DNA of 42,583 nucleotides from Candidatus Omnitrophota bacterium (GCA_043825275.1 JBDRSA010000025.1:1-42583), one strand, 5' to 3'; counted from the first letter of the stretch, positions 1,769-25,687 are shown. Numbers and translations: made by a program. Notes: a model not told the origin generated them from the letters alone.

Positions 1769-1832
1769 TATACGGTTTACCGAAATTAAAAGAATATAAC
1801 ACTTAATCTACTGTATTTAAAGAAGGACTTGT

Positions 1833-4800
1833 ATGGGGCAAGGGCAGATACAGAAGAGAAATTCTATCTTTATGAAGGCCGTATCGTGGATACTGGTCTT
1901 CACCTTCCTTTTTTCAAACTCCCTATTTGCCGAAGTTCTCACCGAACGTACCCACACGCTCGTTCCTTTCTACGCGACATCCGACAAAAAAGATATTGAA
2001 GAGGTCTCAGACGGCGTCAGGTGGTCCCCCGCCGCCGGCGAAACGCTTCGCGATAGAAGCCAGCGTCTCCGGGAAGATTTTAATACGGCTATAGCCGCGG
2101 TGGCCGCGAGAAAACTAGAGAAAAGTCTCGGAACCCAGGACGACTCTGATCCGGTCGGCAAAGACGAAGCGCTTGATGATCTTAGATACAAGCTTGATCT
2201 CGCGCGGAGGATTGACGGGAATTCGCCTGTTCGAGTGGCGGCTCTTAATAATATCAGCAGTAGATTAGCCCATAATATCAATACTGGCGCACCTCTCCAG
2301 GACAGCTCCTCCGGAGATCTTCTCCGGGGCGCGATCGACAAAGCGATCGAAGATTCAAAAAATGCGAGCCGAGACACTGCTGCTCCTCTTTTTAAAACCA
2401 GCAAACCAGGAAACCAGCAAACCTATCAACCGATTTTTCGCCGCTCGCCGAGCGGAGAGGGCATAGCGGATAGCGCAAAGGGCAAAGCGGATAGTGTTCA
2501 GCGCCAGTCGCCTACAAGCGCGGCTTCTGGTATGCCGGCGCGCGCGAAAACGGGGTATGTCACCGTGAATTTGTCTTCTTCAGCCGATCCCAAGGAGAAG
2601 GGATATTGGGGGAATATGTCACTCATCCAAAGGTTAAGGGCGATACCGAATGCTCTTTTGCACGAGGGGCTCCATGCGGCCGCGGACCTGTTCAGGGGGG
2701 AGATCGATCTTAAAAAAGGCCGCTACATACATAAAGCTCCAAACGCTTCACTGCACGATATATTTATAACCCTCGCGGCGCCCGTGGGAGGGATTCTCAT
2801 ACCGGCTTTTGCTCTCTGGAAAAGCGCCAAAGATATTATGGCCGCGGGGTATCCGGCCGGGTCATTGCTCTACTTTTCCGTATTAGTATTCACTACCTAT
2901 ATCGTAGGGAATTACGCGAAAAATTTCATTATAGCAGGGCACAAAGGTATCGTATCGGGACGGCAAAACATTTATGCGCTCCGCCCCGGCGCGGCATTCG
3001 CGATAGGCGGCTTCTATGCTGTTACAACGGCGGTAGTCAGCGGTGTAGCCATCTATAAACTGCTTCATGAGTGGCCCGCGCTTTTGATCGGGATGATGCT
3101 CGTATTAACAACGTTCGAGATCGATTTTATCGTGAGCGGATTTTATAATCTATTTTCGCACACCATTACGGCGGATGGTCCGCGCGCGAGGAACAAGCTG
3201 CGTATTCGCCGTTACGCGAAAGAAGCCAGGGAGATCTATCTCAATGTAGATAGATCCTTTGTCGATATGATCGAAGCCAGAGGAGAGACGTTCCACGGCA
3301 GAGCAGGGGATATCCTGAACTCAATATATACTGCTGAGGATGATGAAACGATCTATGGAATGTTTGCCGAGCGCTTTACCGGCGCGGAAGAGATGGAACA
3401 GGTAAAGCGTTTCGTTGTTTTTGCGCGCGCCTGGGAGACAAACCCCAACGCCCGGAGATTGAACGAGCTGCTCGGCCGTTTTACGGCGATCGAGCTCCTC
3501 TACAAAATTCTTAATGAAGAAAATGGCGAGATACTCGAGCAGAAGATAACCGGCAGCAGAAACCCGCATATGGGCGAAGATCAGAAACCCTACTATGATC
3601 TGGCGTGCGGCTTTATTCCCTTGTTCTGTTTTCAAAAGCTTTTGCGGGATCGTGAGTATGTTTTTGTGGACAATAATCCATTCGAAGTCGCGCATCTTGA
3701 TGAGATGAAAAGACTTTTGAGGATCCCCGATAATGTAAAAATAAGAGAGAGCGAAATATCCGGCATGGATGACGTCGCCCCGGAAAGCCTCGGCACGCTC
3801 CGCCTCGGCAGCCTGGGAGGGGAAGTCGATATCGACAGCCTGCCATACGAACGTTTTGCGGGGTGGATGGCGCCCGGCGGCCAGATCATCGTGGAGTATT
3901 TTGCGGCGGAAACGCGCGGCCTCAGTAAAAATATCGAGATAGTCGACCGGCTGCGAAGCGTGATCGGCGAGGGACGGCAAAACGAATGGAGTTATACCCG
4001 CGGCTATTATGACGCTGACGATGAATTCCATGAATTCGTAGCGGGCCCGATAACCGATGAGCTCGCTTTCAGCACCGTGCATATCTTTACCAGATCTCCC
4101 GAGGCCGGCCCGCCTGCCGTATTGCCCGACGGGCCGCGTCATACCGCGCCTGATACCCCCCGCAGATCACCGAGCGCGGATACGCATGACGAATCGCGCC
4201 AGGCGCCGAGCGTAGTACATCAGCGGATATTCGAAGAAGAGCTTGTCTGGCTCATACAACACGATACCCCGGGATCGAATAAAAAAATAGAACGAACAGA
4301 AGAAATCAGGCAGCAGCGTATAAGGCGGTATCGGCCGGTATTTGATTTTCTTATGGATACGGCGCGTCTCTCAATACAGGACCTGAGAAGATACCGCGAA
4401 CTATTTAGATCAGACCCGGATATCAAATGGGACTTCCTCACCGGAAACCCGTCAGAGGTCATAGAGGTAGATGGAGTTCGCTACCCCAAGCTCGGCATAC
4501 AACCAAAAAAGATCAGGCAGGAATTGGTGCTTCTTATATTAAGCATCCCCGACAACCTCTACCCAACATGGGATTATCTCACCGGAGACCCGCCAGAGAC
4601 CATAGAGATAGATGGAATTCGCTACCCCAAGCTCGGTATGGCACCCGAAAGGATCAGAGGAGCTCCGCGAATTCTTTTGGCAAATGTCCGCAGCAGCCTC
4701 TATCCGACCTGGGCATTCCTGGTGAACCAGGCACGCATGAATAGGGGGCGAATAAGCCAAAGAGTGCTCATGTATTCGCTCGATGGCAAGAGAAGAACTC

Positions 4801-7800
4801 CCTGTTCAGGCACGAGGATGAGGGTGGCGTATTTTACTATCCACGGGATACGATATCGGGAAAGGCCGAGCATACTTACCGCTTCTCGGTTAGAGCTGCG
4901 AAATGAATACCATATTGACATAAATGACTTAGAGAAGTTTTGGCGTGATATTTGGATGCCGAGAGAAGATATGCTGCATGATATCCAAAACGCCGTAGCG
5001 TCAGGTATCCCGGGAGACCAGGTTGACACCAAGGCGCTTTCAGACGCCTTCAGGACTTTGAGGGTCCTGTCGGACGATCATCTCTATTACACAGGCCAGA
5101 GAGACCCTTTGAGCGCGCATATTACATCTACTATCGCGCCGTATTTAGAGCATATTCAGGATTCGCAACACCGAGAACAGGCGCGTACGTTCCTTGGGAA
5201 CCTTCAGGAGCTTCCGACGCATGTGCAGCCTGAAACGGCTGTCGGTGACCCCCGCCGATCTCCGAGCGCCGACAAAAGCGACCCGCGCGTCTACGGTGAG
5301 CGGGGTGCGGAGTCGGTTGCGCACATTGTAAGTTACAGGCCGCAAGAGGTTGCCTCACCCGAAGTCATGTTTATTTCGGGGGCCTACACTTGCACCGGCA
5401 TAGCGGTCTTCGACCCAAAAACCGGCCGCTATATCGGATTTCATGAATTCAATTTTAGAAGCCGGGATGTTAGCAGGATCGTAGAAGAACTGAACAGACG
5501 CTCAGTCGATATATCGACCGCTCGTTTTCTCTTTTTCGGTAATAGCCCAGGGAAGAACGAGATAACCACCTTAAAGGAAAAGAGCCTGAAAAAGGACGGA
5601 TCCTTAAACGAAGAAATGTTCAGGGAAGCGCGTCAGGCATATCTCCGCGAAATCGCCAGGAGCCGAGCGGCAATACTCAGATGCCTTGCCGAAAAAGGGG
5701 TTACCGAAGATCGGGTCACCATGCTTATGACCGATCTTGACGATCCGAACGCCGAAGGCATGAATCACGAGGCTGTTGTCGACGCGGCAACAGGAATGAT
5801 CCTGGTGTACCGCAATGAGACTGAACCCAATACGAGGTTCGGAGAAAAAGATAGTATTAAGCATCCTCCCGAAGTCGTTACGCTTGATGAGTCGGTATCG
5901 TTCGATGCTGCCGCAAGGGACGCCGGCATTGCCGATCTTGAGCGGATCATTAATCTGTACCTGGCGAAGATCAGCGTCTTAAACAAGAATCATGATGACG
6001 ATGGTCATGAAACACCGCGCGGTCCTTCGACAGGCTCAGGACGAGAGTCACCGAGCGGGGGGCGAAAAAATCTTGACGAGGTGTACCTGACAGACGCAAG
6101 ATCCCGAATCGACCGCTATCTCGAAGTCGCAAAATCGGCATGTGCCGATCAGGAAGAGGGCGAATGGCTGCTTCCAGAATATGTTGTATCCAATGAAGCG
6201 TATCCGACAGTGATGCCGCATCTTGAAAGGGCGCTTCAAGAGGGGAAGATCAAGCAGGGAGGGATATATGCCGGCGTTGGGTTTGAGCAAAATTTATCTT
6301 TTATCGGCGCCCTTAAGCCTGCGCGGGCGGTTATTATTGAAAGAAATCATTCTATAACCAAAGTTATCTTACCTGTTTTTCTTGAGTATATATCGAGATT
6401 CTCGAGCAGGGAAGCGCTTATTGATGAGCTTATGAGGGAATGGAACGGCCGGGTGCGGCGAGATCTCTGGACGATCGCGCGAGAGTCTCTTCCCGAAGAA
6501 CTGCGGCACCGTGCCTGGCAGATGTGGGGGGCGGATAGCGACTGCGCGGCGTATATACAAAGATTGATCGATCCGGCCACCTTTCTTCTCTGGCAGATGC
6601 CGGGCTGTTGGCTTTCGAATGATAGCTCCTTCGAGACCGTAAAAACTATGTGGCTTGAAGGAAAACTTTCGGCTGTTTCGGGGAACTGGGAAGGCGAAAC
6701 GCCGAAGAAGGTCGCTGAGCTTGTTGGTGAGCCGGCTGACTATATGTATCTATCGAATATTTTTCGTTTTAACGCAAAGAATAATCCGGACCTCTTCCCA
6801 AAGATCGCCTCGGACCTCTCGAATAACTTGCGTGTGCTTGCCCGTACGGGTGATCCGGTCATTTTGGAAGTAGGCAATAGCGGCAGAAACGATATTTTAG
6901 AAAGACCGCTCAGTTCAAACTTTCGGGTTAGAACGCCGGACGGGGTCGAACACGACATTTCACAAGCATGGCATGATTCTCGGCGCTCTGAAAGGCCGGT
7001 CATCGTTCGGCGTCTCAGTGTTTCGTTTTATGATTTCTTTGCCGATGTCGAAAAGGACGAAGCCGCCAAGGCGCGGACACCCGCATACGGCGCGAATGGC
7101 GAACCCTTCTATTTTTCTGAATTTATCGCGATGCATTCTCTCCTCGGCAGCATTGGAAACATCTGTATCTACGCGCCGGAGAGAAGTTCTCTTGAGGACG
7201 ACCCTGTTTCTTTGGATATTCTCTATGACCTCAGGAGCGCTTTTGACAGCAAACGATCGATCGTCCCTTTAAGCGTTACCGGCATGATGAAGTCTCATAT
7301 CGCGCGCCATTTACGGAAAGCCCAAAGGAGCGCGCTCCCCGAACACCGTGGCGTTTACGAGATGTTTATTGAGAGGATGGAGCGAGAGGGGATCATTGCG
7401 CGTGTGCCGGAAGCGGCGCCGGATTACCGCGATTCTTTAGATTCCAGGCGCGCCTCGCCGACGGCGGACGATGAAGCGTCAAGAAAGCCGTCAGCGGGTA
7501 AGCCCGAGCTTCTTCCCGCGATGTTCGGCATCTTTGCCGGCAACTACCGATCGGTGATGAGCGATGAAGAGCTTGAGAACGCTGATCTTTTTACAAGAAT
7601 GCGGCTGGTAAATGAAATGCTGCGCGATATCGGCGCGGAGTATGTCATAACGCCGCGCGCAAGGCTCGGGTTTCATCTTTTGACGTCACTTGCAGACAAT
7701 CCGATTCTTAAAGGTTTCCGGGCGAATCTCGAAACCGCTATTACCGATATCCGGCCGGAACAGACCAAAGAAGATGTTTCCCGCAAGCTTGCTTCGAGCA

Positions 7801-12896: not shown

Positions 12897-12900
12897 ATAG

Positions 12901-12930
12901 CTGTCAGGTTCCAGTTGTCAGTTGCCAGTA
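12901..12930. repeat. 30-nt heptamer cassette between G1 and G2
   Basis: ctgtcag gttccag ttgtcag ttgccag ta, starting 5 nt after the G1 stop (12894-12896). Confidence 0.7.
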
Positions 12931-12960
12931 AAAGAAAAGAAGAAAAAAGGAAAAAGGAAA

Positions 12961-18900: not shown

Positions 18901-21900
18901 CATGCGCGGTCAGAAGAAGAGATCCTCTCCCTGGCGCGACACCTCAAGGAGATAAATCCGCGGATCGCGGTCGTTATTTTGAAATGGCTGGCAAGCACCA
19001 CTGAAATGCATGGGTCAAAGTATGCCGCTGAAGAGCGTGCCGCCCGGCGGTTCCTACGGCGGTTCGTCAATCTCTTCTTCGGTGAGTTGGGCGGCAGAGA
19101 AGCTATCAATGATTATCTGGTGATGGCTGCCAATATGGTCCAGAAAGCGCGTCGAGAGCGGGATCTTATGCCGGATGAAGTGGCGGTCGTTCCGGTATTG
19201 ACCGGTGGAGGTACGCTGAGGGATTTTGCCAACACAAGACTCTTCTTCTCCGTACACCGCGTGCGGCCGCTTTTGTTTACCAGGGTAATGGCACAGGCAT
19301 ACGGCGTTGAGGAAGTTGATGGACGCCGACGATTTACCAGGGAGGGTGCCGAAGCCGTTTGTGAATACCTGAAACTACAGGAGATCATCGATGACAGAAT
19401 TCGGCATATCGTCTTTTTGGATGTCGGCCAGCGAGGTACGATCAGAGAGCTCCTGACGCCGATCCTCGACAAATTGTCGATCACGTCCGACCTTCCGGTG
19501 CTCTATCACGGCAAATACGCCGAAGCAGATCGGCACCTGGCGCACGGCCTGAACGATGAGCCGGCATGGCGGCCGCGCGATGAAGAGCTTTTGTGGATGG
19601 CCTATATCCTCGATGATGGATTCGAAAAGAGTATCGATGTTTCTAACTTCGTCTTAGAAGAAAAGCCACGCGGGCGCCTCCCGTTCTTTAAGCTTACAAA
19701 CAGTCTGTGGTTCTATCGATTGGTGCAGGAGAGAACGCAGATCGCCGCATCGGGATTGCCGGTATATTCAAGAAATCTGTACGATACCTGGGATTATTAT
19801 AGAGACGAGGATGAGAATGATCCCGCGTTCCGTCACTCGCCGAGCGGGGACGACGACGCAGAGCGCAAAGCGCAAAGCCTCCGGCCCTTACGGGCCTTAG
19901 GCCCGGAGGGCGCAGAGCAAAACCTTGAAGCGCGCGAAAGCGCTGTTTCCCCTAGTGCTGCGCCCGACATGGAAAAAATAAACAAAGCGGTAAAATTTGC
20001 GATCGATATCCTGAAGAGAGATGAAGAAAAGAGAGCGCTGCGCAATACCTGCAAGCAGCACGCCCCACTTCTGTGTTATCTCTTGAATCGTATGGGTATT
20101 GATGCGGAGGTCTCCCTGGTTTATTACGACAACTTTATGTTAAGAGAGGTCCACTACTGCGTGAAGATCCCGGGCCAAACACCGATCTATGTTGACTCGT
20201 TGCCTGAGGCGCATACGCACAGGATCTCACGCGATCCCGGCGTAGGCGTTATTCTCAAACCGGGAGATCCCGACTATGAGTTATATGTCGACGGCGAGAA
20301 ATTAGCGGGCCAGTATAGCGGTGGTCTTGCGAATCTGACACCAGGCGCCCGGATGCTGTTCGGCGTGAAAGAGGCGGAGAAAGAGATCGACGCGTTCATT
20401 GCGCGACTTACCGGAAGATCTTCCGGCTCCGCAGCGGGCGAGGACGAACAACCGGCAGACGACCGTACCCCGGAAACCATACACCGTAAACCGGAAGAAC
20501 CACGCCGTTCTTCGAGCGGGAGCGATGCCGCAAGGCCGGATCGTGATAAAGCGCTTCCGGATGTCCCGGATGACCTTCTCGACCGGCTGCCTGAACGCGA
20601 AGCGCTTATTCAGATAATCCGGATGGTGCTCGACGGAAGAGCCAGGGGGCCAAGAAAATTATACGGGGATCAGGATCGCAGATTTAATGTGTTGCGCCTC
20701 TGGACATTAGAGGGGGCCGCATATCAGGATATCATAGGACAAGTAGATTTTACGTACGCGGCAGCTCGGGAACATAAGAGGCGGGCGATCATTAGTCTCG
20801 CGGATTGGTTGGCTCCTTATGGCGTAACCCGTCAAGAGATCAAGGAAGTATTGAAAAGTATCCAAAAACCACAATTCTTAACAATGAAACTTGGTGATTA
20901 TCGCGCCTGGCATGTCCATTATAGCAATTGGGTCGTCGGCGAGGCGGAGGCGCCCGATCAGATACAATTCAATAAAAACGATAAAGAAGCCTGGGGACAG
21001 ATACTCGCTTTGCTCCGAGAACTCCATATAGTAGAGCCTACGTTCGACGAAGGGACGATCATCCCGCGCAAAGATGAGCACGGTTACATCATCGAGATCA
21101 GAGATCGGAATGGCGAGGCCCGGCATCAATATCTGACATGCTTTATTACGGGCAAGATGCTGAATCCGGTTTCATCCTTCGGTATTGTTATGCGGGGTTC
21201 AAGACAGAGCGAATTACGTCTTTTATTGGCAGGGTACGGCCCCGCCGATCTTCTCCCGGCGCTCGGCGATGTTAAAAAGTCTGTGTTACATTTAAAAGGA
21301 GGTGATTATCAGAGAGTTAGGCTGCTGAAAACCCCTCAAGGCAGGTCTATATATGTTACATTGTCAAAACGGTACACCTCTGATCACATAAAACCCGAGA
21401 TCTCAGGTGAAAGCCTTGCCGATTCCGCAAAAACCCGTATTACACTTTATGATCCTGATACTAACGAACCTGTATCGGACGTGATCGTGTGGACAGACAG
21501 GAAAAATTGGGAATGGGAAGATCAGAGATCAGACAAATATATTGATCCATCAGAAAATGGATATATACAGTGGTCCGCCGGGCAATGGAGAAGGTATCTT
21601 GCCGGAAGCAGGAGGACTCCTCCCAGACAGGATAAGATCGACACATATCCTACACCAATACAAAGGTCACACAGAGCAACGTCGAGAGTCGTTCGTATGT
21701 TAGAAAATGAAATAGATCTTGGGTATGAAGATGAATGTCCTTATGAACAGGTAAAGCGGTGCGCGTTGAAGATACCGGGCGATGATAGGCGTTTCATGGG
21801 ATTGTGGGCCCCCGAAGTCGATCCGGCGACAACTCCTCCGCTGGTTGTCCTCAGGCTCACAGGTAAAACATTGATCAATACCCTTACTATTCCCGCGGAA

Positions 21901-24900
21901 TACGAGATCGTTACACACGAGACTCCGGTGGAAACTGCTGAAAAAGAACCTGCCCAAGAGACCGTTTTAGAAGGTCCCGGAAAAGAGGTGCCTCCGCCAG
22001 TGGGAAGGATTCTCAAAGAGGAAGCTCCGGAAGAAGCTGCCGGTGAAGAAAAAAGCGCTCAAGAGGCCGACGCAGAGGCCCCTGGAACAGCCGGTGACGA
22101 TCTCATACATGTATCTATCGGAAACGCGATCAGATTCGACGAAGATGAGATCGAGCAAGCGCGTAACTTGACAAGAAGGGTATCTTCAAAAAAACGTTTG
22201 GCTGCTCGAAGTTTATCTGCTCAGGAACAGGATATAGTTGATATGGTCTTGCAGGGCGCAAGCGCGTCAGGGTTGACAGATCTTTATCTTGCGGCCTGGT
22301 CGGATCTACTAAAGAGCGCCATGATAAAGCTCGTGACGACAGACCTTCGCGAGCTGCCCCAGGCGTACGCGAAATACCGGAAGCTTTTTAGCGGATCAGC
22401 CGGTGCCGTGGGTAAGAAAAAACCGAAAAAGAAAACCGGCAGGAAAAAGCGCCATTCCCCGAGCGGGGAGGAAGACAGTTCGGAGTTCGGAGTCGGGAGT
22501 TCGGAGACAAAAGTGCGCCTGTCACCAGAGCACCAGAGCGCCAGCAACCAGAAAGCGAGTCGCGAATCACCCAGCGGGAAAAACAGTTCAAGGTTCAAGG
22601 TTCAAGGTTCAGAGAGCGCAGAGAGCATAGAAGAGAAAACCGGCGAACCGGTGATCCGTCGCCTGCATCGCGCTTCGGATCATTCCCTGATTCGTCGCCT
22701 TCAACACGTCTCGAATCACCCCCGGACTTTTCGTGGGGGGATCTTTCGTGGGGCTAACCGGCGAACCGGCGAACTGGCAAACCGGAAAGCCGGTCAACCG
22801 AAACGCCGCTCCCCCAGCGGGGAAAGACTGATCATCCCCGATGAGTATCGATCGGTGGGGAGTGAAAAATTCAGGGAGATATTCGGAAAAGAATTCGGCG
22901 GTCTCGCCCCCGACGCCGAACAGCTGGCGAGCCTGCTCGACCGCTTGAATCCGGCCGTTTTCGATATTCATCGCTCCGTTTGCGACAACAATGGGAGAGA
23001 GATATACCCGTATTGGTGTCATCCGATGTCCAGGGTAGTAGCGCAGGTTCTTAAAGATCGAGGATTCGATGTTGCTTCTGGCTCTTCAATCGTCGATGCG
23101 CAGGAGTTTGGATTTAATGTAGTGGTTGTCCACCATATAATAATACTTCAACTCTCGCAGGGGAACGTTCTCCTTGATTACACCGCCGACCAGTATTATA
23201 AAGACGCTGACGGCAACTGGCTCCACATCGAGCCGGTGATCATGCCTTGCGCCGAAGCCGAACGGGGAGCATTTTATGGAAGTGTGGAGAAAGGCGCAGC
23301 GATGAGATTAGATGAGAGAGACAGAAAGCTGTATGAAGCGATAAATGATGCTCTCAGCGGGAGCGAGGATAGAGCAAGAGGCGAAACTCCACGCGAGTCG
23401 CCGAGCGGGGAGAAAAGCGGTTCAGGGTTCAATGTTCAAAGTTCAAAGTTGCCGACTGCCGGGCACAAACCGTTAACCGAATACCGTAAACCGGTGCGTG
23501 AATCCCCCAGCGGGGAAGAGAATAGACTGTCTTCCAGAAGAAAGGGGACACGGAAAGAAGAACTGGCGCAGCGAAGAGTAAAACCTCTTTCAGATGTGGT
23601 TATCTCGAATATTGATAAGGGGCCTGTGGTTGCCGAAAGTGAGCTCAGAGAGTTGGTGGAGAGTACAGAAAAATTCGGCGGGGATTGGCGGAATCGAATT
23701 GTCACCGCCATGGCAGACCCGGAATCGGTAACATTGCTTGCGCGGCGTCACGGAAGAATCGTCGGGTTCATAACAGGGGTTGAGCCGGATGAGAGCGACC
23801 GGGAGCTTATCGGAAAACGTAACGCGCATTACTTGCTTGGTATTGGCGTGCGGCCTGAAGAGCAGGATCAAAGGATCGCGACGGCGCTCTTTGCGCGGTA
23901 TACTAAGACGCTCAAGAGGCTGGGGAAATACGATTCTGTAGCGCTTCACACAAGAGATGATCGGATTTTTCGAATAATTGCCCGCTATCAGGACAGAGTC
24001 ATCCGCACGCGCCGGAAACATACAGATCGTGGTATGCAGATCGTTCTCTCGCTTGGAAGCGACGGTCCGGAGAAAGCCAAGTTGCAAGAAAGAAAAGCCC
24101 CGCTTCGCCGCAGGTCGCCGAGCGCGGAGGGGGATAGTCCGGAGTTGGTAGTCCGTAGCCCTGATCGAGAGTTTCTTGTAGATAAGAGAATCTCGGCTGA
24201 GAAAGAGATCTATGAGAGGTTCAGAAGAGGTGATAACAGTTTTATCGCGTTTTTCGATTTTGATCACTCAAGGCACTATTTTACGACTTTCGGTGAGATG
24301 AAAATGAATAGAATCTTAACGGGCGGGTTTTTGCGTGCGCTTGAATTTCTGGAAGGAGAAGGAGTACTAGTATGGCCACCTCTTGGATTTGGCTGTGAGG
24401 AGATCGGGCTCTTATTCCCGGAATCTATGGAAAAAGAGGAAGTGCTTTCACTGCTCGTCTCTGCGAAGGAAGAGATCGAGAAAACCACCTTTCCACTTAA
24501 AGGGACCGCCGTGCTTCAAAAGATCCAGAAGACTGTACCCCTTTTGGGCAAAGCGAGAAGTGAATCGAATCAAAGAGTGCAGCAGGCGTGGCTTGAGAAA
24601 GAGATGAGAGACTATTTCTCGCAAATGAAGCGATGGAAGAATAAATACGGTCGGAGGACTATTGTCGATCTCGATTTAGAGCCCCCAGTAGTCTATAAAA
24701 AAATAAGCCGCAATTCCCCCAGCGCGGAAAACGGTCCAAGGTCCAACGTCCAAGGTCCAAGGCCGCCGGAAGATAGCGGAGCGCCGAAAACCGTAGACCG
24801 TAAACCGGAACGCGGATCGCCTACAGGCGATGACAACAAGATACTAGATACTAGATACCAGATACGAGATCCTCGCCGCTCATTAAACGCTGACATTGAC

Positions 24901-25575
24901 AGCCCCCAAGCCGTCGCTGCTGAGGTTGCTTCCGACATGAGGGAGCTTGAAGTCGACATGTTCCTCTCGAGCACCGAGATCGACTATAGCAAGGTCGCTA
25001 TTGTCGCCAAGCGCGGCCTCGCCCAGGACAAAGCGCGCGAGCATGAGGGCCTGATGCTTCTCGGCGAAACGCTCTGGTATGAATATAAAGTCATGAAGCA
25101 GAACCTCGTGAAGCTGATCGGTAAAGAGATCATCGAAGTCGATTCGACCGACGATCTTATCAGCGCCGTTGAAGAACTCATCGGTGACAAACCGGATGAA
25201 GGGTTCAGGGTTATCGTCCTCGATGACGGAACGTTGACCGGGAACCTGAGCGAAACAGATATCGCGAAAGGCACGAAAGGAAAACATTACTGTGTCATAT
25301 CCGCGCCGTTCGAGAAACTCGGCAAGAATTACGCGCAATTCGTCAATCTGAACGGCATGACGCTCATGGGCGTCGGCATTCTTTTCGATAAACTATCGCT
25401 ATTTGAACTGGCGTATAAAGTATTTCACGGCAAAAAACCGCCGAAGGATATTAAAGACCGATTCCTGAATAAGACCTTATGGATCATCAGCGTTCTGCCC
25501 CGAAGCGTCTGGTTCGATGCGGACGACTTCAAGAATCGGGTGGAGCTGCAGAAGCTCTTTCAAACCGCCGCGTAG
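12961..25575 (+). CDS. Giant mosaic protein G2 (about 4,204 aa from ATG 12961; the ORF track starts at TTG 12922)
   Basis: An uninterrupted 12.6-kb ORF. I prefer ATG 12961 (MMNKEQTV...), which is preceded by the purine-rich aaaaggaaaaaggaaa. The TTG-to-ATG stretch is part of the heptamer cassette and a poly-purine tract. Leader, HExxH block and C-terminal module are paralogous to G1. Confidence 0.9.
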   Translation: MMNKEQTVINRTMRRIQRIVSMILIPAFLLSNSVFAEVLIERASVATAVPYYISALLDEHKDDLKDLARGVTPVMDRNFVDRKEDFEKAWDLMCAERLALKIVSKIKQDEDRGSMADAERWLIRQIEDRADEYGMSAERKAFLVEAITREFRGEGADEDVIDAKEIFETRQVEDGGQASKGIEHSADASHQALGISRQEADDREQKTEDRGRDYRESPTGGKSRQTPVASFQEKQKINRERRTTHESEASASANRRRDGERSLPGGDAQRDGRKPYTVNRTPEARHSPSEDSDDPAAEEPDEEMGDFLDSLEVPLPQDQDFPIRILSSSFIKECELIREFGLKEETGAYIALYRYNGEPIGDLKTGGEFILKASIRPMAGMNALIGPTAGFHSKIGPSENVPDLYGVIDFGIEGRTVSGHKLYETAILKEFVEGPSLREYVMAMKTERSDSATEQQFLDLVTSVLRDYRDTYRINGWMNGDLDSRDIVVARARSGSGSRNVFIDNGTATEYGSDDPAAIARKRVVKALYCSFKRFMRLSEREPAEWCLPRDDGYSLTIALLDCLGLIADTPVDFQESGQHYIDVVESRVLSDIHSPQLIDRLKSVAAMREHVFTRIVRAHENNGRLEELAHVLNHYRKRFEDEDVFNALLRDVERIARGEPSLGPDRGLEGFGGAIERKSPSADISSEFIVHSSQITDSKEQELEDDQADDRTPKTEHREPKEPRRSSPSGDDKTEGPEREDSIDAIRDADTLSNYVDGLIADINDTQKDAQISFSDILASPEGYNESFFEPLYEILFRKLSRDFSGSEEFVEYCGRAIGQKGADILRVEMNGENLPLIGRIGGIRRNNNTKKASIELYGFLFFLLAREPKKYLARVYDEFMKTRPAEDIALGRRGISYHDRGDSVVHFYTKGVIFEGIVKPVYKKSLMPIYEHEKTVLEDRTGSDSAKKIGRALQYWQTQGYMPGNERLLERVKNFWKSTTVVELDMRTPLLFSDPDHNVVRSFHAGRTRRVLFFSKAYLDSLSIDSEADMKELAFWLSFGQRFIDMKDEMEAKGFDSRQIEQARSALSLLYFEDVFIKCQEDASLIDPLYIKDRCRRYMRQDTFIKYTTLLRETIEKEKEADALLRQADKTKAQEHYALAWFLYGKLLYKYDGMGLHSEAEKAYQNMTSATRECQLHNWGLLPYRVYMFDTFTALRFGKWPEFVEGLETFLTGKGYKRRMWREEANLLRNCLCGHEGIYRDFREVIERVIHSQMDAADTEVLSEITPHAERAFDLLKRFYEDGGPERCLEIDTLPTLPEGNNTEPKPDGSSDKKRRSPSGEEDSRQSTVRSPKIEKQDPRESPTGGDDRSGFIVHSSKLPTEKQDLRDSPTGGKSRQTPVASFQKKQKINREQRTTNESEAKRSLPGGDAQRDDRTPERRSPSADRHDSADAVEAASAAPDYREWLDRKVPSEWRDRLTPKQREFLTVYYQTDKVLETKKMSLFTKALLSLGVAGALGFPVFVVPSASSALTVAGLIFFMFVFIPTHEAGHYLAARAVNRASLRKTGRPVFSSIRYAWEGTFPQVRIEFADEFRQPKGFIDVIEWGPTVSLITSAAAFAITGLSIFFGWDIVSYFSSPTAYLTFAMFLFESFWRFGYSNDGSLSARTNKISRAFKKAKRSYSFLGEDPIHWGIEAEDFLIDAGDGIYWAVPEESWNETDLLADRVRVRARESLLRNRDVLFGMGQRRPDGAAIPDEPPENVSHIPFLSDTVRMDSIRYPMPFELSGELVKPDQGDREGKSSFIVRSVFNPSGRRYALYKVTDFPKELLHRSKGPEPSAGESARRSPSGEEISPESGARSREKKEDGYRANDEILDTRYKIQNPRTSPSAAIPPDADPAFFESSSPPYWMMGNDLIAKETKRLAAKLLDQASAERAGRPWSYEEIQKLLQTHPEITTKLQFEKAEYYHIPEIAAYANLALDEESRAFYDEAERIFKKIVHARSEEEILSLARHLKEINPRIAVVILKWLASTTEMHGSKYAAEERAARRFLRRFVNLFFGELGGREAINDYLVMAANMVQKARRERDLMPDEVAVVPVLTGGGTLRDFANTRLFFSVHRVRPLLFTRVMAQAYGVEEVDGRRRFTREGAEAVCEYLKLQEIIDDRIRHIVFLDVGQRGTIRELLTPILDKLSITSDLPVLYHGKYAEADRHLAHGLNDEPAWRPRDEELLWMAYILDDGFEKSIDVSNFVLEEKPRGRLPFFKLTNSLWFYRLVQERTQIAASGLPVYSRNLYDTWDYYRDEDENDPAFRHSPSGDDDAERKAQSLRPLRALGPEGAEQNLEARESAVSPSAAPDMEKINKAVKFAIDILKRDEEKRALRNTCKQHAPLLCYLLNRMGIDAEVSLVYYDNFMLREVHYCVKIPGQTPIYVDSLPEAHTHRISRDPGVGVILKPGDPDYELYVDGEKLAGQYSGGLANLTPGARMLFGVKEAEKEIDAFIARLTGRSSGSAAGEDEQPADDRTPETIHRKPEEPRRSSSGSDAARPDRDKALPDVPDDLLDRLPEREALIQIIRMVLDGRARGPRKLYGDQDRRFNVLRLWTLEGAAYQDIIGQVDFTYAAAREHKRRAIISLADWLAPYGVTRQEIKEVLKSIQKPQFLTMKLGDYRAWHVHYSNWVVGEAEAPDQIQFNKNDKEAWGQILALLRELHIVEPTFDEGTIIPRKDEHGYIIEIRDRNGEARHQYLTCFITGKMLNPVSSFGIVMRGSRQSELRLLLAGYGPADLLPALGDVKKSVLHLKGGDYQRVRLLKTPQGRSIYVTLSKRYTSDHIKPEISGESLADSAKTRITLYDPDTNEPVSDVIVWTDRKNWEWEDQRSDKYIDPSENGYIQWSAGQWRRYLAGSRRTPPRQDKIDTYPTPIQRSHRATSRVVRMLENEIDLGYEDECPYEQVKRCALKIPGDDRRFMGLWAPEVDPATTPPLVVLRLTGKTLINTLTIPAEYEIVTHETPVETAEKEPAQETVLEGPGKEVPPPVGRILKEEAPEEAAGEEKSAQEADAEAPGTAGDDLIHVSIGNAIRFDEDEIEQARNLTRRVSSKKRLAARSLSAQEQDIVDMVLQGASASGLTDLYLAAWSDLLKSAMIKLVTTDLRELPQAYAKYRKLFSGSAGAVGKKKPKKKTGRKKRHSPSGEEDSSEFGVGSSETKVRLSPEHQSASNQKASRESPSGKNSSRFKVQGSESAESIEEKTGEPVIRRLHRASDHSLIRRLQHVSNHPRTFRGGIFRGANRRTGELANRKAGQPKRRSPSGERLIIPDEYRSVGSEKFREIFGKEFGGLAPDAEQLASLLDRLNPAVFDIHRSVCDNNGREIYPYWCHPMSRVVAQVLKDRGFDVASGSSIVDAQEFGFNVVVVHHIIILQLSQGNVLLDYTADQYYKDADGNWLHIEPVIMPCAEAERGAFYGSVEKGAAMRLDERDRKLYEAINDALSGSEDRARGETPRESPSGEKSGSGFNVQSSKLPTAGHKPLTEYRKPVRESPSGEENRLSSRRKGTRKEELAQRRVKPLSDVVISNIDKGPVVAESELRELVESTEKFGGDWRNRIVTAMADPESVTLLARRHGRIVGFITGVEPDESDRELIGKRNAHYLLGIGVRPEEQDQRIATALFARYTKTLKRLGKYDSVALHTRDDRIFRIIARYQDRVIRTRRKHTDRGMQIVLSLGSDGPEKAKLQERKAPLRRRSPSAEGDSPELVVRSPDREFLVDKRISAEKEIYERFRRGDNSFIAFFDFDHSRHYFTTFGEMKMNRILTGGFLRALEFLEGEGVLVWPPLGFGCEEIGLLFPESMEKEEVLSLLVSAKEEIEKTTFPLKGTAVLQKIQKTVPLLGKARSESNQRVQQAWLEKEMRDYFSQMKRWKNKYGRRTIVDLDLEPPVVYKKISRNSPSAENGPRSNVQGPRPPEDSGAPKTVDRKPERGSPTGDDNKILDTRYQIRDPRRSLNADIDSPQAVAAEVASDMRELEVDMFLSSTEIDYSKVAIVAKRGLAQDKAREHEGLMLLGETLWYEYKVMKQNLVKLIGKEIIEVDSTDDLISAVEELIGDKPDEGFRVIVLDDGTLTGNLSETDIAKGTKGKHYCVISAPFEKLGKNYAQFVNLNGMTLMGVGILFDKLSLFELAYKVFHGKKPPKDIKDRFLNKTLWIISVLPRSVWFDADDFKNRVELQKLFQTAA
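13012..13115 (+). other. G2 N-terminal leader / signal-anchor
   Basis: RIVSMILIPAFLLSNSVFAEVLIERASVATAVPYY; see the G1 leader. Confidence 0.7.
13523..13833 (+). repeat. G2 linker cluster 1
   Basis: Heptamer arrays tagtcac caggcac taggtat cagtcgc and (NNacaga)x6. RESPTGG at 13603-13623. Cassette agtcgcc agacgcc agttgcc agtttcc ag at 13627-13656. ccgtaaa ccgtaca ccgtaaa ccgtaca follows. RHSPSED at 13813-13833. Confidence 0.8.
13925..14520 (+). other. G2 protein-kinase-like (RIO/Kdo-kinase-like) module
   Basis: ILKEFVEGPSL is hinge-like. GWMNGDLDSRDIVV (14395-14427) resembles the HGDLxxxNilv catalytic loop with N in place of H. VFIDNGTA (14467-14484) resembles the DFG/IDfg motif. Confidence 0.4.
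14992..15156 (+). repeat. G2 linker cluster 2
   Basis: RKSPSAD at 14992-15012. Cassette agttcag agttcat agttcat agttcac ag at 15016-15045. accgtac accgaaa accgaac accgtga accgaaa follows. RSSPSGD at 15136-15156. Confidence 0.8.
16909..17241 (+). repeat. G2 linker supercluster 3 (four motif copies)
   Basis: RRSPSGE 16909-16929, RESPTGG 16984-17004, RDSPTGG 17065-17085, RRSPSAD 17221-17241. Cassettes lie at 17011-17040 and 17089-17118. Confidence 0.85.
17390..17900 (+). other. G2 membrane block with HEAGH (M50/M50B-like intramembrane metalloprotease candidate)
   Basis: LIFFMFVFIPTHEAGHYLAARAV places HExxH (17545-17559) at the end of a TM helix, as in site-2 proteases. Further helices are LLSLGVAGALGFPVFVV, VSLITSAAAFAITGLSIFFGW and AYLTFAMFLFESFW. 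A downstream SNDGS could be the second metal-ligand motif. Confidence 0.5.
18433..18576 (+). repeat. G2 linker cluster 4
   Basis: RRSPSGE at 18433-18453. Cassette agtccgg agtccgg agcccgg agtcggg ag at 18460-18489. gatacta gatacta gatacaa gatacaa at 18522-18549. RTSPSAA at 18556-18576. Confidence 0.8.
19831..19962 (+). repeat. G2 linker cluster 5
   Basis: RHSPSGD at 19831-19851. gcagagcgcaaagcgcaaagc follows, then the near-palindrome cctccggcccttacgggccttaggcccggagg. The degenerate AVSPSAA is at 19942-19962. Confidence 0.7.
19975..20400 (+). other. G2 Cys-His-Asp module 1 (transglutaminase-like / papain-like fold candidate)
   Basis: TCKQHAPLLCYLLNRMGIDAEV (Cys codon 20050-20052), VHYCVKIP (His 20152-20154), IYVDS (Asp 20194-20196). 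Order and spacing resemble transglutaminase-like cysteine peptidases. Confidence 0.4.
20452..20523 (+). repeat. G2 linker cluster 6 (ADDRTPETIHRKPEEPRRSSSGS)
   Basis: Nucleotide-level copy of 15082-15156 (ADDRTPKTEHREPKEPRRSSPSGD). The motif is degenerate here, with the Pro lost. Confidence 0.7.
20575..20815 (+). other. G2 sigma-70 region-4-like / LuxR-like HTH segment (weak)
   Basis: LPEREALIQIIRMVL...RFNVLRLWTLEGAAYQDIIGQVDFTYAAAREHKRRAIISLADWL follows the L.erer.vl...eG.sy.eIa...s..tvk....RA...L pattern. Confidence 0.25.
22450..22824 (+). repeat. G2 linker supercluster 7
   Basis: RHSPSGE 22450-22470. Cassette 22477-22506 (agttcgg x4). RESPSGK 22561-22581. Cassette 22585-22614 (ggttcaa). 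Octamer array aaccggcg aaccggcg aactggca aaccggaa agccggtc aaccgaaa at 22756-22803. RRSPSGE 22804-22824. Confidence 0.85.
22840..23290 (+). other. G2 Cys-His-Asp module 2 (papain/transglutaminase-like candidate)
   Basis: YPYWCHPMSRVVAQVLKDRGFDVA (Cys 23017-23019), VVVHHIIILQ (His 23131-23133), VLLDYTADQY (Asp 23176-23178). The layout matches module 1. Confidence 0.4.
23392..23517 (+). repeat. G2 linker cluster 8
   Basis: RESPSGE at 23392-23412. ggttcag ggttcaa tgttcaa agttcaa ag at 23419-23448. aaaccgttaaccgaataccgtaaaccgg follows. RESPSGE at 23497-23517. Confidence 0.8.
23570..24060 (+). other. G2 GNAT-like N-acetyltransferase module
   Basis: RIVGFITGVEPD...HYLLGIGVRPEEQDQRIATALFARYTKTLKRLGKYDSVALHT fits GNAT motif A (V.P..rg.GiG..L......a...G...v.L.v). 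Confidence 0.5.
24109..24165 (+). repeat. G2 linker cluster 9
   Basis: RRSPSAE at 24109-24129, followed by gatagtccggagttggtagtccgtagcc (EGDSPELVVRSP). Confidence 0.8.
24180..24500 (+). other. G2 degenerate GGDEF-like (nucleotidyl-cyclase fold) module
   Basis: FDFDHSRHYFTTFGEMKMNRILTGGFLRALEFLEGEGVLVWPPLGFGCEEIGLLFPES aligns position for position with the DIDxFKxINDxFGHxxGDxVLxxxAxxL...RYGGEEF core as I recall it. The FG, IL and LR positions coincide. The signature is GCEEI instead of GG[DE]EF. Confidence 0.4.
24709..24894 (+). repeat. G2 terminal linker cluster 10
   Basis: RNSPSAE at 24709-24729. Cassette ggtccaa ggtccaa cgtccaa ggtccaa gg at 24733-24762. accgtagaccgtaaaccgg follows. RGSPTGD at 24811-24831. 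gatacta gatacta gatacca gatacga at 24840-24869. The degenerate RRSLNAD is at 24874-24894. Confidence 0.8.
24943..25572 (+). other. G2 C-terminal module shared with G1
   Basis: See the G1 entry at 12243-12893. It ends ...VELQKLFQTAA-stop. Confidence 0.8.
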
Positions 25576-25577: not shown

Positions 25578-25619
25578 TTGTCACTGACAACTGTCAACTG
25601 ACAACCGGCAACTAACAAG
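25578..25619. repeat. Six-unit heptamer array directly after the G2 stop
   Basis: ttgtcac tgacaac tgtcaac tgacaac cggcaac taacaag, starting 3 nt after the stop at 25573-25575. Confidence 0.75.
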
Positions 25620-25687
25620 AGGCCGGTAGACCGCCGCCATTGCCCTTGCCCCACAAGGAAGGCGGCCCTGCCGGCCTCTTATTTGTG
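25617..25687 (+). terminator. Long imperfect hairpin, terminator candidate for the giant-gene operon
   Basis: aagaggccgg (25617-25626) pairs perfectly with ccggcctctt (25671-25680). Inner pairs are ccgcc/ggcgg and ccttg/caagg. The T tract that follows is weak (atttgtg). Confidence 0.5.

Follow-up and report, generated by a model that had tools for sequence, protein, structure and literature searches.

Two giant genes, designated here G1 and G2, lie in tandem on the same strand and cover 55.8% of the window, i.e., the whole stretch of 42,583 nucleotides from Candidatus Omnitrophota that we analyzed. Their sizes, their spacing of 25-64 nt and a coverage of about 56% had been announced by the original prediction, and the ORF list and the translations bore them out.

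1833..12896 (+): G1, complete gene with ATG start, 3,687 aa, from the ORF list and translation (P0001 in our protein collection)
12897..12960 (+): G1-G2 spacer, with a heptamer array (12902-12929) and then an A-rich tract with the G2 ribosome-binding site
12961..25575 (+): G2, complete gene, 4,204 aa from the ATG at 12961 (P0002 in our protein collection)
25617..25685 (+): terminator-like hairpin, then a U-run, after G2 (RNA fold)

The ATG of G1 follows an AAGGA ribosome-binding site located 8 nt upstream, and that of G2 at 12961 is preceded by the ribosome-binding site AAGGAAAA. The G2 ORF is open from a TTG (12922-25575, + strand, 4,217 aa), the gap to G1 being 25 nt when measured to this TTG and 64 nt to the ATG. 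Since no terminator was found in the 64-nt spacer, G1 and G2 are probably co-transcribed. The hairpin after G2 had a folding energy of -42.8 kcal/mol (z = -6.5), with an equally good fold in none of 200 shuffles, and the genes downstream of G2 are nagA-like and glmS. A BLASTP comparison of G1 and G2 returned only two matches, a C-terminal one (G1 3400-3687 vs. G2 3916-4217 in TTG numbering, 38% identity, E = 2e-44) and an N-terminal one (G1 3-95 vs. G2 19-111 in TTG numbering, 35% identity, E = 6e-8). Homology between the two is thus limited to the leader with the N-domain and to the C-terminal domain (CTD), between which G1 carries approximately eight and G2 approximately ten cargo modules. 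G1 and G2 are complete tandem paralogues.

Repetitive linkers between the modules, a contig known from one metagenome-assembled record and exact look-ups that did not find a second assembly of G1 or G2 would be in keeping with genes that are chimeras joined at the repeated linkers or separate genes misread as one. We consider such an artefact extremely improbable. The two frames remain open over 11.1 and 12.6 kb (3,687 and 4,204 codons), with recognized domains in frame at several places and no stop at any of the approximately 29 linkers, which argues against misjoins because two out of three random ones would disrupt the frame. Exact repeats inside G1/G2 do not exceed 42 nt, the modules begin without a start codon or a ribosome-binding site, and a single leader and a single CTD are present in each gene, correctly placed. 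Moreover, relatives measuring 2.7-2.9 kaa were found again on 2-4 contigs; among the family members, P0020 and P0058 were present on four contigs each and P0006 on two.

The constant parts of both proteins were delimited as follows.

1872..1949 (+): G1 hydrophobic leader, aa 14-39, ending SNSLFA|EVLTER (hydropathy scan)
12997..13086 (+): G2 hydrophobic leader, aa 26-55 (TTG numbering), ending SNSVFA|EVLIER (hydropathy scan)
1938..2438 (+): G1 conserved N-domain, aa 36-202 (BLASTP vs. G2 E = 6e-8, vs. P0010 E = 1e-5)
13069..13605 (+): G2 conserved N-domain, aa 50-228 (BLASTP vs. P0070 E = 6e-8, P0031 2e-6, P0043 2e-5, P0010 5e-5)
12198..12893 (+): G1 CTD, last 232 aa, alpha/beta, ending ...LFAVAA-COOH
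24877..25572 (+): G2 CTD, last 232 aa, 38-44% identity to the G1 CTD

The leaders of G1 (FSNSLFAEVLTER) and G2 (LSNSVFAEVLIER) share an n/h/c layout in which positive charges precede the hydrophobic stretch and a small residue occupies position -1 (..FA|E). The G1 leader looks like a Sec-type signal peptide that would be cleaved after FA. A leader of the LIPxFLxSNxxFAE type was present in 34 of the 48 family proteins with a length of 550 aa or more, and several of those without it run off contig ends. The N-domain that follows is homologous in P0010, P0031, P0043 and P0070, with which no cargo is shared; the N-terminal part of P0010 was modeled as helices, at low confidence. The proteins end in ...QVELAKLFAVAA (G1) and ...RVELQKLFQTAA (G2), and across the family the CTD measures approximately 215-230 aa and finishes in ...LFxVAA-COOH. 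AlphaFold2 modeled the G1 CTD with high confidence (pLDDT 92.7, pTM 0.91) as a three-layer, Rossmann-like alpha/beta domain with near-invariant D113, C136, N154 and R209. This model matched no PDB or BFVD fold at E < 0.01, the CTD sequence matched no Pfam, NCBIfam or PDB profile, and known sorting or docking domains showed no detectable relation to it.

We then defined the family by searching exhaustively for the G1 CTD with HMMER, clusters being made at 50% identity. At least 80 clusters were obtained (61 at E < 1e-10), with E-values down to 1e-30 for G1 and G2 matching at 3e-38. In nearly all 80 clusters the CTD lies at the extreme C-terminus, behind cargo that varies, in proteins of 71 to 5,568 aa, and all six named genome loci carrying it belong to Candidatus Omnitrophota MAGs. 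One member, P0068 (locus L008), is a probable third paralogue; P0068 and the V-ATPase A of the window (exact) both occur in run SRR26275509, a common sample that, with the distribution of the family, points indirectly to Omnitrophota for the window. The near-identical leader and the shared C-terminal module of about 215 aa that had been noticed in the two ORFs are therefore borne out, and the notion of constant ends around swappable enzyme modules generalizes: the CTD defines the family, and most full-length members, G1 and G2 included, also have the leader and N-domain. G1 and G2 appear to belong to an undescribed family with a constant chassis, which is made of a basic-hydrophobic leader, a helical N-domain, a variable string in which unrelated modules of enzyme size follow one another, and the CTD.

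Within this variable string, only three domains were recognized in G1/G2, the other modules being Pfam-dark, and each protein has a membrane block.

6180..6770 (+): G1 DUF7790 module, aa 1450-1646 (Pfam PF25046, E = 1e-10; isolated module 5e-12)
10737..12074 (+): G1 GHMP sugar-kinase module, fucokinase-like, aa 2969-3414, motif PPQSGLGASSS
23710..23961 (+): G2 GNAT acetyltransferase module, aa 3597-3680 (Pfam PF00583, E = 5.5e-8; isolated module 1.2e-9)
2640..3152 (+): G1 membrane block, HEGLH at aa 277, then approximately four hydrophobic helices (aa 305-434), no Pfam match
17404..17841 (+): G2 membrane block, HEAGH at aa 1542 among three hydrophobic helices

The GHMP module matched GHMP_kinases_N (PF00288, E = 3e-6, 27.8 bits for a cut-off of 22.3), the NCBIfam fucokinase/GDP-fucose pyrophosphorylase profile (2.7e-14) and the fucokinases 9iip (1.4e-7) and 5yys (5.8e-7) of the PDB, and its PPQSGLGASSS corresponds to the PxGSGLGSS-type motif II of these kinases. 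The GNAT module scored 33.5 bits against Acetyltransf_1 (PF00583), above the cut-off of 20.7. These two assignments of the original prediction were confirmed, whereas its methyltransferase-like (SAM-MTase), kinase-like, HTH-like and GGDEF-like modules and two Cys-His-Asp modules found no profile support at E ≤ 5. Likewise, its shared HExxH membrane block stood only in part. Both proteins have 4-5 hydrophobic segments and exactly one HExxH (H277 in G1, H1542 in G2), within or beside 3-4 hydrophobic helices, but the two blocks have no detectable sequence similarity, lie at different positions and had no HExxH counterpart in the other family members. The G2 block weakly resembles M50/site-2 proteases, with a match to Peptidase_M50 (PF02163; E = 0.037, 13.8 bits) below the 27.2 cut-off, and a word-index search found no homologues of it.

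The cargo of the relatives was more informative. In 23 of them, Pfam identified PFK (5 members), transaldolase, transketolase, PfkB, GDH, FBPase, aldolase and the P and T proteins of glycine cleavage, so that the cargo of these relatives consists mainly of central-metabolism enzymes. Such cargo does not fit the idea, raised when the ORFs were first noticed, of a MARTX-like or polymorphic-toxin (Rhs/CDI) system whose toxic domains would be delivered to prey or host and processed by built-in cysteine proteases. G1 and G2 share with these toxins a very large, modular, secreted-type build with common ends and differing modules, the phylum has been proposed to be predatory or episymbiotic, and Cys...His...Asp spacing can be seen by eye in two segments of G2. 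However, these segments had neither Pfam support nor similarity to each other. The absence of RTX, Rhs and VENN hallmarks, already remarked upon, was upheld: at E ≤ 1, Pfam and NCBIfam gave no Gly-rich RTX repeats, C80 cysteine protease domain (CPD) or T1SS C-terminal signal for MARTX, and no Rhs/YD or hemagglutinin repeats, VENN or PT-HINT for Rhs/CDI, and PADLOC gave no matches either. The polarity of variation also differs, since the C-terminal tip is the variable part of polymorphic toxins and the constant part here. In addition, no immunity-like small ORF lies downstream, where the nagA-like gene and glmS come next. A toxin function is thus largely refuted and very unlikely.

The modules of G1 and G2 are joined by polar, disorder-prone linkers carrying the motif R-x-S-P-[ST]-[GA].

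2439..12095 (+): nine G1 motifs, R codons at 2439, 4161, 5253, 6042, 7449, 8652, 9591, 9744 and 12075
from 2502 (+): a tenth G1 copy, RQSPTS
13603..24894 (+): twenty G2 motifs, R codons at 13603, 14992, 15136, 16909, 16984, 17065, 17221, 18433, 18556, 19831 (first ten), 20503, 22450, 22561, 22804, 23392, 23497, 24109, 24709, 24811 and 24874 (last ten)

The repeated linkers perceived by the original prediction proved real and far above chance, the family having 50 copies of the motif for 1.4 expected from shuffles, and 21 for 1.2 when G1 and G2 are left aside. Of the 29 copies in G1 and G2, 26 fall in polar, disorder-prone segments; for G1 alone, this is the case for 7 of 9, in segments totaling 9.5% of the protein. 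The motif marks module boundaries. Indeed, distant members have it at aa 144-184, directly after the N-domain, and again 232-295 aa from the C-terminus, directly before the CTD. At the DNA level, the pattern TCNCCNAGCGSNGA had 23 matches for 3.2 expected, all located between 2438 and 25017; the + strand carried 21 of them, the other two, on the minus strand, being palindromic or due to chance.

Most G2 motifs are flanked by heptamer arrays. There are 34 such arrays in the window for 0-2 in shuffles, which sit in the linkers of G1/G2 and are otherwise mostly intergenic. As a separate oddity of genome biology, heptamers enter linkers and even pyrK, at places where its product has insertions compared with the solved PyrK. 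Rickettsia palindromic elements and the cyanobacterial STRR heptamer repeats are known in-frame repeat insertions. The arrays observed here are comparable in that short DNA repeats (period 7, 3-5 units) occur both between genes and in frame within genes, including the housekeeping gene pyrK, and differ by the phylum, by their unit sequences and by their concentration in the inter-module linkers of giant genes.

Such repeats raise the question of whether the linkers and their motif are selfish or slippage-generated DNA, that is, in-frame repeats (a palindromic head plus heptamer arrays) inserted at tolerant inter-domain sites, or spacer remnants of genes fused by stop-codon loss, the peptide being functionless. 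A DNA-level origin of the motif is conceivable because its DNA is partly palindromic (CCGCTCG-C-CGAGCGG) and repeat-like, forming the DNA repeat families D2 and D4. Besides the abundance of the arrays, units were found after stop codons and inside pyrK, arrays in other Omnitrophota loci fall outside long ORFs, and those within ORFs bear point changes exactly where a perfect repeat would create an in-frame stop. The codons of the motif are also constant in family: Arg is encoded by CGN and the first Ser by TCN throughout, and AGC encodes the second Ser in 21 of 22 cases, AGY making up 33-39% of Ser codons genome-wide. This constancy reflects shared descent of the motif copies. On the other hand, third codon positions are randomized (all four bases are used in the first Ser) around invariant amino acids, a pattern in keeping with common descent and purifying selection of the peptide. 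The motif is confined to a single frame and a single strand, and the remaining 19 kb of the window contain heptamer arrays but no copy of it. It is moreover retained at the N-domain and CTD boundaries despite only approximately 30% CTD identity, and is present in the P0068 ORF, which has no heptamer arrays. These features point to common descent of the motif copies with selection acting on the peptide, and we judge a purely selfish origin unlikely.

As a whole, our observations are best explained by an Omnitrophota chassis family carrying multi-enzyme cargo, with predicted roles in export, sorting and recognition, an explanation that we regard as reasonably likely. The leader would act as a Sec signal or anchor and the chain would probably be exported or tethered at the cytoplasmic membrane. 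The CTD could possibly be a common sorting, docking or assembly module for all cargo, a role likened to that of T9SS C-terminal domains or cellulosomal dockerins, whose folds are unrelated. More doubtfully, the linker motif might be recognized at module boundaries, most likely by a processing protease for which the invariant Arg would determine specificity. Cleavage at the motif would make G1 and G2 polyproteins of 8-10 enzymes each, and R-x-S-P-[ST]-[GA] would be a concrete candidate for the site. Each protein has in its single HExxH membrane block a weak candidate for the built-in protease, and no protease conserved alongside the motif was found. The repeated linkers would also provide homologous sites for module shuffling between paralogues. 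Combined, these steps would describe true polyproteins of a new export/sorting system, in which the leader and a CTD of new fold route 8-10 enzymes towards an envelope 'coat', a host or a prey, an Arg-directed protease cuts at the motif and the linkers recombine cassettes; this complete scenario is rather improbable.

Cargo that depends on ATP, SAM or acetyl-CoA (GHMP kinase, GNAT, PFK) does not sit easily with a location in the periplasm or outside the cell. The need for cytoplasmic cofactors, which extends to transketolase, would suit an uncleaved, membrane-tethered cytoplasmic metabolon. There, the leader would be an uncleaved anchor (or the HExxH/TM block would re-enter the membrane) and the enzymes would face the cytoplasm. 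The CTD would be regulatory, ligand-binding or oligomerizing; given its Rossmann-like fold and near-invariant Cys, Asp, Asn and Arg, its role could lie in catalysis or ligand binding and not in sorting. As for the motif, R-x-S and S-P are classic kinase determinants, and it would be a Ser/Thr phosphorylation site or simply a favored flexible linker. We find this arrangement fairly unlikely, as the leader layout, small -1 residue and preceding positive charges are typical of cleaved Sec signals, the second TM segment that would return the chain to the cytoplasm is absent in most family members, and the profile searches did not confirm a kinase domain in G2.

The preferred chassis reading places G1 and G2 near several known systems. 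They resemble T9SS cargo by the N-terminal signal peptide, the variable middle and the conserved extreme C-terminal domain with a short conserved site directly upstream, which in T9SS cargo is a sortase cleavage site. In contrast, the phylum differs, the CTD is an alpha/beta domain of approximately 230 aa instead of a beta-sandwich of 80-100 aa, the motif is also found between internal modules, and no T9SS CTD (Por_Secre_tail/TIGR04183) was matched in G1/G2 with Pfam and NCBIfam. As in cellulosomal dockerin enzymes, different catalytic modules are combined with one common terminal module, but the cargo is not made of CAZymes, dockerin PF00404 had no match in G1/G2 and no cohesin-like partner was identified. 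Polyproteins cut at short linker sites include the RgpA/Kgp gingipains of Porphyromonas, cleaved after Arg/Lys, and those with picornavirus-like 3C sites. G1 and G2 have in common with them domain-sized modules split by a short motif with an invariant basic residue and, possibly, a protease-like element in the chain, whereas here cleavage is a prediction, no Arg-specific protease domain was recognized and the modules are enzymes of metabolic type.

The closest parallels are found within the phylum. Very long, multi-enzyme, membrane-associated proteins of Omnitrophota have been published as 'Archaeovorins' (West-Roberts et al., 2023, bioRxiv 10.1101/2023.11.21.568195), and passages of a second preprint describe class 1 'multi-enzyme metabolic clusters' (Nielsen and Lui, 2026, bioRxiv 10.64898/2026.06.07.730766). 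The original prediction could not place the architecture in any family. This holds insofar as a term search of these two preprints found no passage on the leader/CTD chassis or the linker motif, but not for multi-enzyme giants as a general phenomenon. These giants are among the largest proteins known, with signal-peptide plus TM topologies and a speculated cleavage for which passages of the same preprints report 'no information about cleavage points'; both the occurrence and the location of cleavage are stated there to be unknown, which blocks their structural dissection. G1 and G2 offer a tractable small version, i.e., two complete genes of approximately 4 kaa with a defined chassis. The CTD (confident model, no known fold match, at least 80 clusters) and the boundary motif make it testable whether giants are polyproteins, and the motif sites allow the modules to be cut in silico. 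If the polyprotein reading were true, the motif would give the first predictable cleavage points for Omnitrophota giants. Glycolytic and pentose-phosphate enzymes behind signal-peptide-like leaders are puzzling and bear on how ultra-small episymbionts feed.

By length, G1 and G2 (3,687 and 4,204 aa; longest CTD match 5,568 aa) fall short of both groups, Archaeovorins exceeding 30,000 aa (genes > 90 kb) and class 1 clusters having at least 10 kaa, so that 3.7-4.2 kaa compare with at least 10-30 kaa. Archaeovorins also have numerous TM helices and a divergent SecA DEAD domain, unlike G1 and G2, which have few TM helices (4-5 hydrophobic segments each) and lack SecA_DEAD (E ≤ 1), C39, S8 and dockerin. 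The type of architecture is the same as in class 1, where many distinct Pfams occur and none dominates. Passages on Archaeovorins describe methyltransferase, glycosyltransferase, hydrolase, peptidase and NUDIX domains mixed in one chain (bioRxiv 10.1101/2023.11.21.568195). G1 and G2 appear to share with the giants the many unrelated enzyme domains per chain (methyltransferase, GNAT, sugar kinases, sugar metabolism), the N-terminal signal peptide and/or TM helices, a sequence that is mostly Pfam-dark and, probably, the phylum. Hence, with family cargo that is mainly central-metabolism enzymes and named genome loci that are all from Omnitrophota, G1 and G2 take their place as small relatives beside the 'multi-enzyme' giants already published for this phylum.

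Two tandem giant genes, G1 and G2, occupy most of the first 26 kb of the window:

1833-12896, + strand: G1 ORF, 3,687 aa, ATG start
12922-25575, + strand: G2 ORF, 4,217 aa counted from a TTG

Translation of G2 probably begins at the ATG at 12961, behind AAGGAAAA, for a product of 4,204 aa, the same length as in the protein collection. Depending on this choice the two genes are separated by 25 or 64 nt, and together they represent 55.8% of the window. ORF calls and lengths confirmed the original prediction of two same-strand giant ORFs, 25-64 nt apart and covering about 56% of the sequence. G1 is preceded by an AT-rich stretch and an AAGGA ribosome-binding site. A sigma-70 promoter or a terminator within the G1-G2 junction was also considered and rejected. 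We weighed whether such long frames could arise from misassembly, or from several separate genes read as one. This is unlikely, since the frames remain open through about 29 repetitive linkers, the longest exact repeat within 1833-25575 is 42 nt, and recognised domains lying far apart are in frame (DUF7790 at aa 1450-1646 and a GHMP kinase at aa 2969-3400 of G1; a GNAT domain at aa 3597-3680 of G2). Exact-sequence look-ups of G1, G2 and their relatives P0003 and P0004 returned zero records. No terminator was found in the 64-nt spacer, and G2 is followed by a hairpin (-42.8 kcal/mol, z=-6.5) and a U-run, so that from sequence G1 and G2 look like one operon. The G2 terminator is separated from a nagA-like gene by 380 nt that include a 44-nt inverted repeat (25688-25731 / 25788-25831, 86% complementary, 56-nt spacer), which may be what is left of a MITE or IS, or may act as a regulatory hairpin.

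The window corresponds to one complete NCBI contig of 42,583 bp, the remainder of which is housekeeping, with a TPR protein, a nagA-like amidohydrolase, glmS, V-type ATPase subunits and a pyrR-pyrB-pyrC-pyrK-pyrD-pyrF-pyrE set. The contig is chromosomal and is not a mobile element or a phage. PADLOC, Rfam and tRNA scans were all empty, and an identical V-ATPase A protein was found again in the Logan assembly of run SRR26275509. Between the housekeeping genes lie REP-like palindromes of the form GTCATTGCGAGGAGCG...CGACGAAGCAATCTC, about 35-55 nt long:

1486-1630, 28964-29041, 30159-30199, 33331-33400, 36100-36230, 37611-37721, 41939-42002: REP-like palindromic intergenic repeats, both orientations

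A BLASTP comparison of G1 with G2 revealed exactly two common regions. The first ~95 aa match with 35% identity (E=6e-8), a stretch spanning the leaders FSNSLFAEVLTER and LSNSVFAEVLIER, and the last ~290 aa match with 38% identity (E=2e-44), which bears out the common leader and C-terminal module predicted for the pair. Relatives sharing the C-terminal domain (CTD) were sought with the G1 tail by exhaustive HMMER scanning of 1.84 billion representatives, since the word-index search was insensitive for this family (no matches with the G1 CTD, and only four short proteins with the CTD profile A1). The HMMER scan recovered 80 clusters, with E<1e-10 for 61. Locus searches gave nothing with the close-subfamily alignment A5 on metagenomes and only six short contigs with the alignment A2, and a genome scan with a CTD alignment found six loci, each of which belongs to a MAG annotated as Candidatus Omnitrophota. 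The CTD match reaches the final residue in practically all 80 clusters, for proteins of 71-5,568 aa. Among the 48 members with 550 aa or more, 34 open with the leader (basic residues, then ..LIPxFLxSNxxFA|E), which is followed in many of them by a T-L-A-P-Y-S..L motif; several leaderless members are truncated at contig ends. The N-domains of G1 and G2, the conserved region after the leader, are homologous to those of P0010, P0031, P0043 and P0070, and no G1 or G2 cargo module matched any other family member. P0010 (460 aa) amounts to leader, N-domain and CTD with zero cargo. Some members recur on several contigs (P0020 and P0058 on four each, P0006 on two). With a terminal CTD, a recurrent leader and homologous N-domains without matching cargo, the predicted bracketing of variable cargo by constant ends holds across the family and is a property of the family as a whole. 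G1 and G2 are two complete tandem members of this family, whose named genome loci are all from Omnitrophota.

The CTD is an undescribed domain. It was modelled with AlphaFold2 from a 32-sequence alignment (pLDDT 92.7, pTM 0.91) as a three-layer alpha/beta domain with a long helix at the end, and its near-invariant residues include Y62, D113, C136, N154, Y177, W202, P208 and R209. Foldseek retrieved nothing at E<0.01 from PDB (best TM about 0.3) or BFVD, and PDB sequence and profile searches gave nothing convincing, the best profile match being a designed TIM barrel (E=0.011). Pfam scans of the CTD of 32 members had no match, and neither did whole-protein NCBIfam and Pfam scans of G1 and G2 at either end. 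Weak resemblances to caspase, vWA and EIIA-Man were dismissed (TM<=0.39, E>=0.01), the caspase reading being further opposed by the lack of a conserved His for a caspase-type dyad. In the AlphaFold2 model of the minimal member P0010, the N-part consists of low-confidence helices and no packing of the N-domain on the CTD was seen.

Modules are separated by polar, disorder-prone segments (9.5% of the G1 sequence, 19% of that of G2), and the motif R-x-S-P-[ST]-[AG] falls within them in 26 of its 29 copies in these proteins. Successive motifs are about 200-780 aa apart, approximately the size of an ordinary enzyme. At the DNA level, the pattern TCNCCNAGCGSNGA has 23 matches against 3.2 expected, every one between 2438 and 25017; 21 are on the + strand, with the listed motif copies in frame, and the two on the minus strand reflect either a site's palindromic reverse or chance. 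The motif is also present in the relatives P0003, P0004, P0019, P0023, P0026, P0043, P0068 and P0071, usually at aa 144-184, directly after the N-domain, and at 232-295 aa from the C-terminus, directly before the CTD. Across the 80 family proteins we counted 50 copies versus 1.4 in shuffles (21 versus 1.2 when G1 and G2 are left out). In all 29 copies Arg is encoded by CGN and the first Ser by TCN (TCG 14, TCC 7, TCA 6, TCT 2). AGC encodes the second Ser in 21 of 22 cases, with AGY accounting for 33-39% of the Ser codons in the genes of the window. A codon family that stays fixed while third positions vary freely is the pattern expected if the copies descend from a common source under strong peptide selection. 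We conclude that the motif is probably a functional peptide element at module boundaries. The most economical guess is a processing site, based on the invariant Arg and the boundary location, including a site just upstream of the CTD as in sorting signals. The main alternative is a phosphorylation or binding site.

One motif-bearing relative comes from run SRR26275509 as well, and its contig agrees with the window in GC content and heptamer units; this relative probably represents a third paralogue, from the genome of the window or a close one:

L008, Logan SRR26275509 contig of 8,908 bp, 1701-7013: P0068 gene, 1,770 aa, with leader, N-domain, PfkB kinase and CTD

P0068 contains six R-x-S-P-[ST]-x motifs and zero heptamer arrays inside its ORF; AGTCGCC / ACGGTTT arrays border the gene outside it. 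Both linkers of P0010 carry the variant R-G-S-T-T-G, which suggests that the boundary motif may have lineage-specific versions. Two G1 linkers also have a 42-nt element in common (6018-6059 / 9720-9761, aa ~1396-1409 and ~2630-2643, 86% identity), which encodes PSTGSGR[EG]SPSG and contains CCTTCGACAGGCTCAGG. The CCTTCGACAGGCTCAGG part, in frame in G1, resembles a widespread intergenic repeat that translates as 'FDKLRAG/LRQAQ' in many uncultured bacteria.

Mainly in G2, the motif is flanked by tandem 7-nt units in 3-5 copies each (including ACCGTAA, AGTTCAT, AGTCRCC, AGATACT, AGTYCGG and GGTCCAA). The window contains 34 such arrays, compared with 0-2 in shuffles: 19 in G2, three in G1 and six in pyrK, the remainder being intergenic and usually right behind stop codons, the G1 and G2 stops among them:

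1407-1437, 12902-12929, 25583-25618, 31773-31807, 31905-31938: arrays outside the giant genes, several unit families, sometimes inverted pairs
33423-34388: pyrK, with six in-frame arrays at 33612-33641, 33779-33809, 33868-33899, 34073-34092, 34237-34266 and 34294-34325

The array after the G1 stop (12902-12929) is an inverted copy of that after the G2 stop (25590-25617; 28 nt, 82%), so that G2 is bracketed by inverted arrays. Similar arrays occur at other Omnitrophota loci (L002, L005, L008, L010-L012), nearly all outside long ORFs. Since heptamer arrays are otherwise mostly intergenic, the G1 and G2 linkers partly consist of DNA of a kind usually found in spacers. Possibly some modules were fused by stop loss in former spacers; equally, the arrays may have expanded wherever protein structure tolerates them. 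In about half of the in-ORF arrays a perfect repeat of the unit would give an in-frame stop, and the offending copy is altered. The pyrK product is 321 aa long, versus about 260, and several of its arrays fall at insertions that solved PyrK structures lack, such as VHSSKFIVHSKKKK and a ~30-aa KSTVDSPQSTERKLRKRDVSDDGRRTTDDG segment in the Fe-S domain. These period-7 arrays recall the cyanobacterial STRR heptamers.

Recognisable cargo in G1 and G2 is limited to three modules, namely DUF7790, a GNAT domain and a GHMP kinase of fucokinase-like type, in which the PPQSGLGASSS motif is intact. Profiles supported the earlier GHMP-kinase-like (G1) and GNAT-like (G2) calls. The SAM-MTase-like, kinase-like, Cys-His-Asp, HTH-like and GGDEF-like calls found no Pfam support among 20 isolated modules (E<=5), and BLASTP detected no similarity between the two Cys-His-Asp segments of G2. 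The predicted membrane block with HExxH stood in part: each protein has one HExxH adjoining a hydrophobic-helix cluster (G1 H277, G2 H1542), but the two blocks have no similarity detectable by BLASTP. The HExxH block is absent from other family members; that of G2 had a sub-threshold Pfam M50 match (E=0.037) and no matches in the word-index search. G1 further contains a 90-nt duplication (4427-4516 / 4568-4657, aa ~866-942, 82% identity), followed by a third degenerate copy, which encodes W[DY][FY]LTG[ND]P.E.IE[VI]DG[VI]RYPKLG in an unrecognised repeat domain. In 23 other members, Pfam identified phosphofructokinase (five members), transaldolase, PfkB kinases, glutamate dehydrogenase, glycine-cleavage P and T proteins, FBPases, transketolase, class II aldolase, adenosine deaminase, PMI, Fe-ADH, radical SAM, HAD and a receiver domain. 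The cargo of the family is central metabolism and regulation, not toxins.

The family chassis combines a constant leader, N-domain and CTD with unrelated enzyme modules and conserved boundary motifs. The leader follows the n/h/c organisation of Sec signals, with Ala at -1, and most members lack a further TM segment, from which the mature chain should sit outside the cytoplasmic membrane. As the sole universally shared globular part, always terminal, the CTD would most plausibly be a module that all members use for sorting, docking or assembly, by analogy with T9SS CTDs and dockerins and not by homology. The motif would be the recognition site where modules, N-domain and CTD are separated, and the single HExxH membrane block of G1 and of G2 could provide a protease. 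The cargo requires ATP, acetyl-CoA or sugar phosphates, which favours instead a membrane-tethered metabolon with its enzymes facing the cytoplasm, unless the enzymes act in or on a host or prey cell.

The likeness to MARTX or polymorphic toxins raised in the original prediction did not survive: membership tests placed G1 and G2 in neither MARTX nor Rhs/CDI, and the family cargo is not toxin-like. A T9SS membership test was also negative for both proteins. Giant proteins of Omnitrophota have been published as 'multi-enzyme metabolic clusters' with signal-peptide and/or TM topologies (Nielsen and Lui, 2026, bioRxiv 10.64898/2026.06.07.730766), and the 'Archaeovorin' giants mix methyltransferases, glycosyltransferases, hydrolases, peptidases and NUDIX enzymes (West-Roberts et al., 2023, bioRxiv 10.1101/2023.11.21.568195). 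The CTD-family cargo agrees with both, whereas G1 and G2 are far under the published size thresholds and lack the SecA-DEAD, C39, S8 and dockerin domains of those giants. The claim that the architecture fits no known family thus needs amending: G1 and G2 belong with the known Omnitrophota long multi-enzyme proteins, but term searches of these two preprints found no passage on the chassis, the new-fold terminal domain (the CTD) or the boundary motif, and literature searches yielded nothing specific on the chassis, the motif or Omnitrophota heptamer repeats. According to West-Roberts et al. (2023), the giants could not be dissected in silico for want of known cleavage points. To the known giants our analysis adds a chassis that can be recognised in proteins of 0.5-5.6 kaa, a terminal domain with a new fold and a conserved boundary motif.
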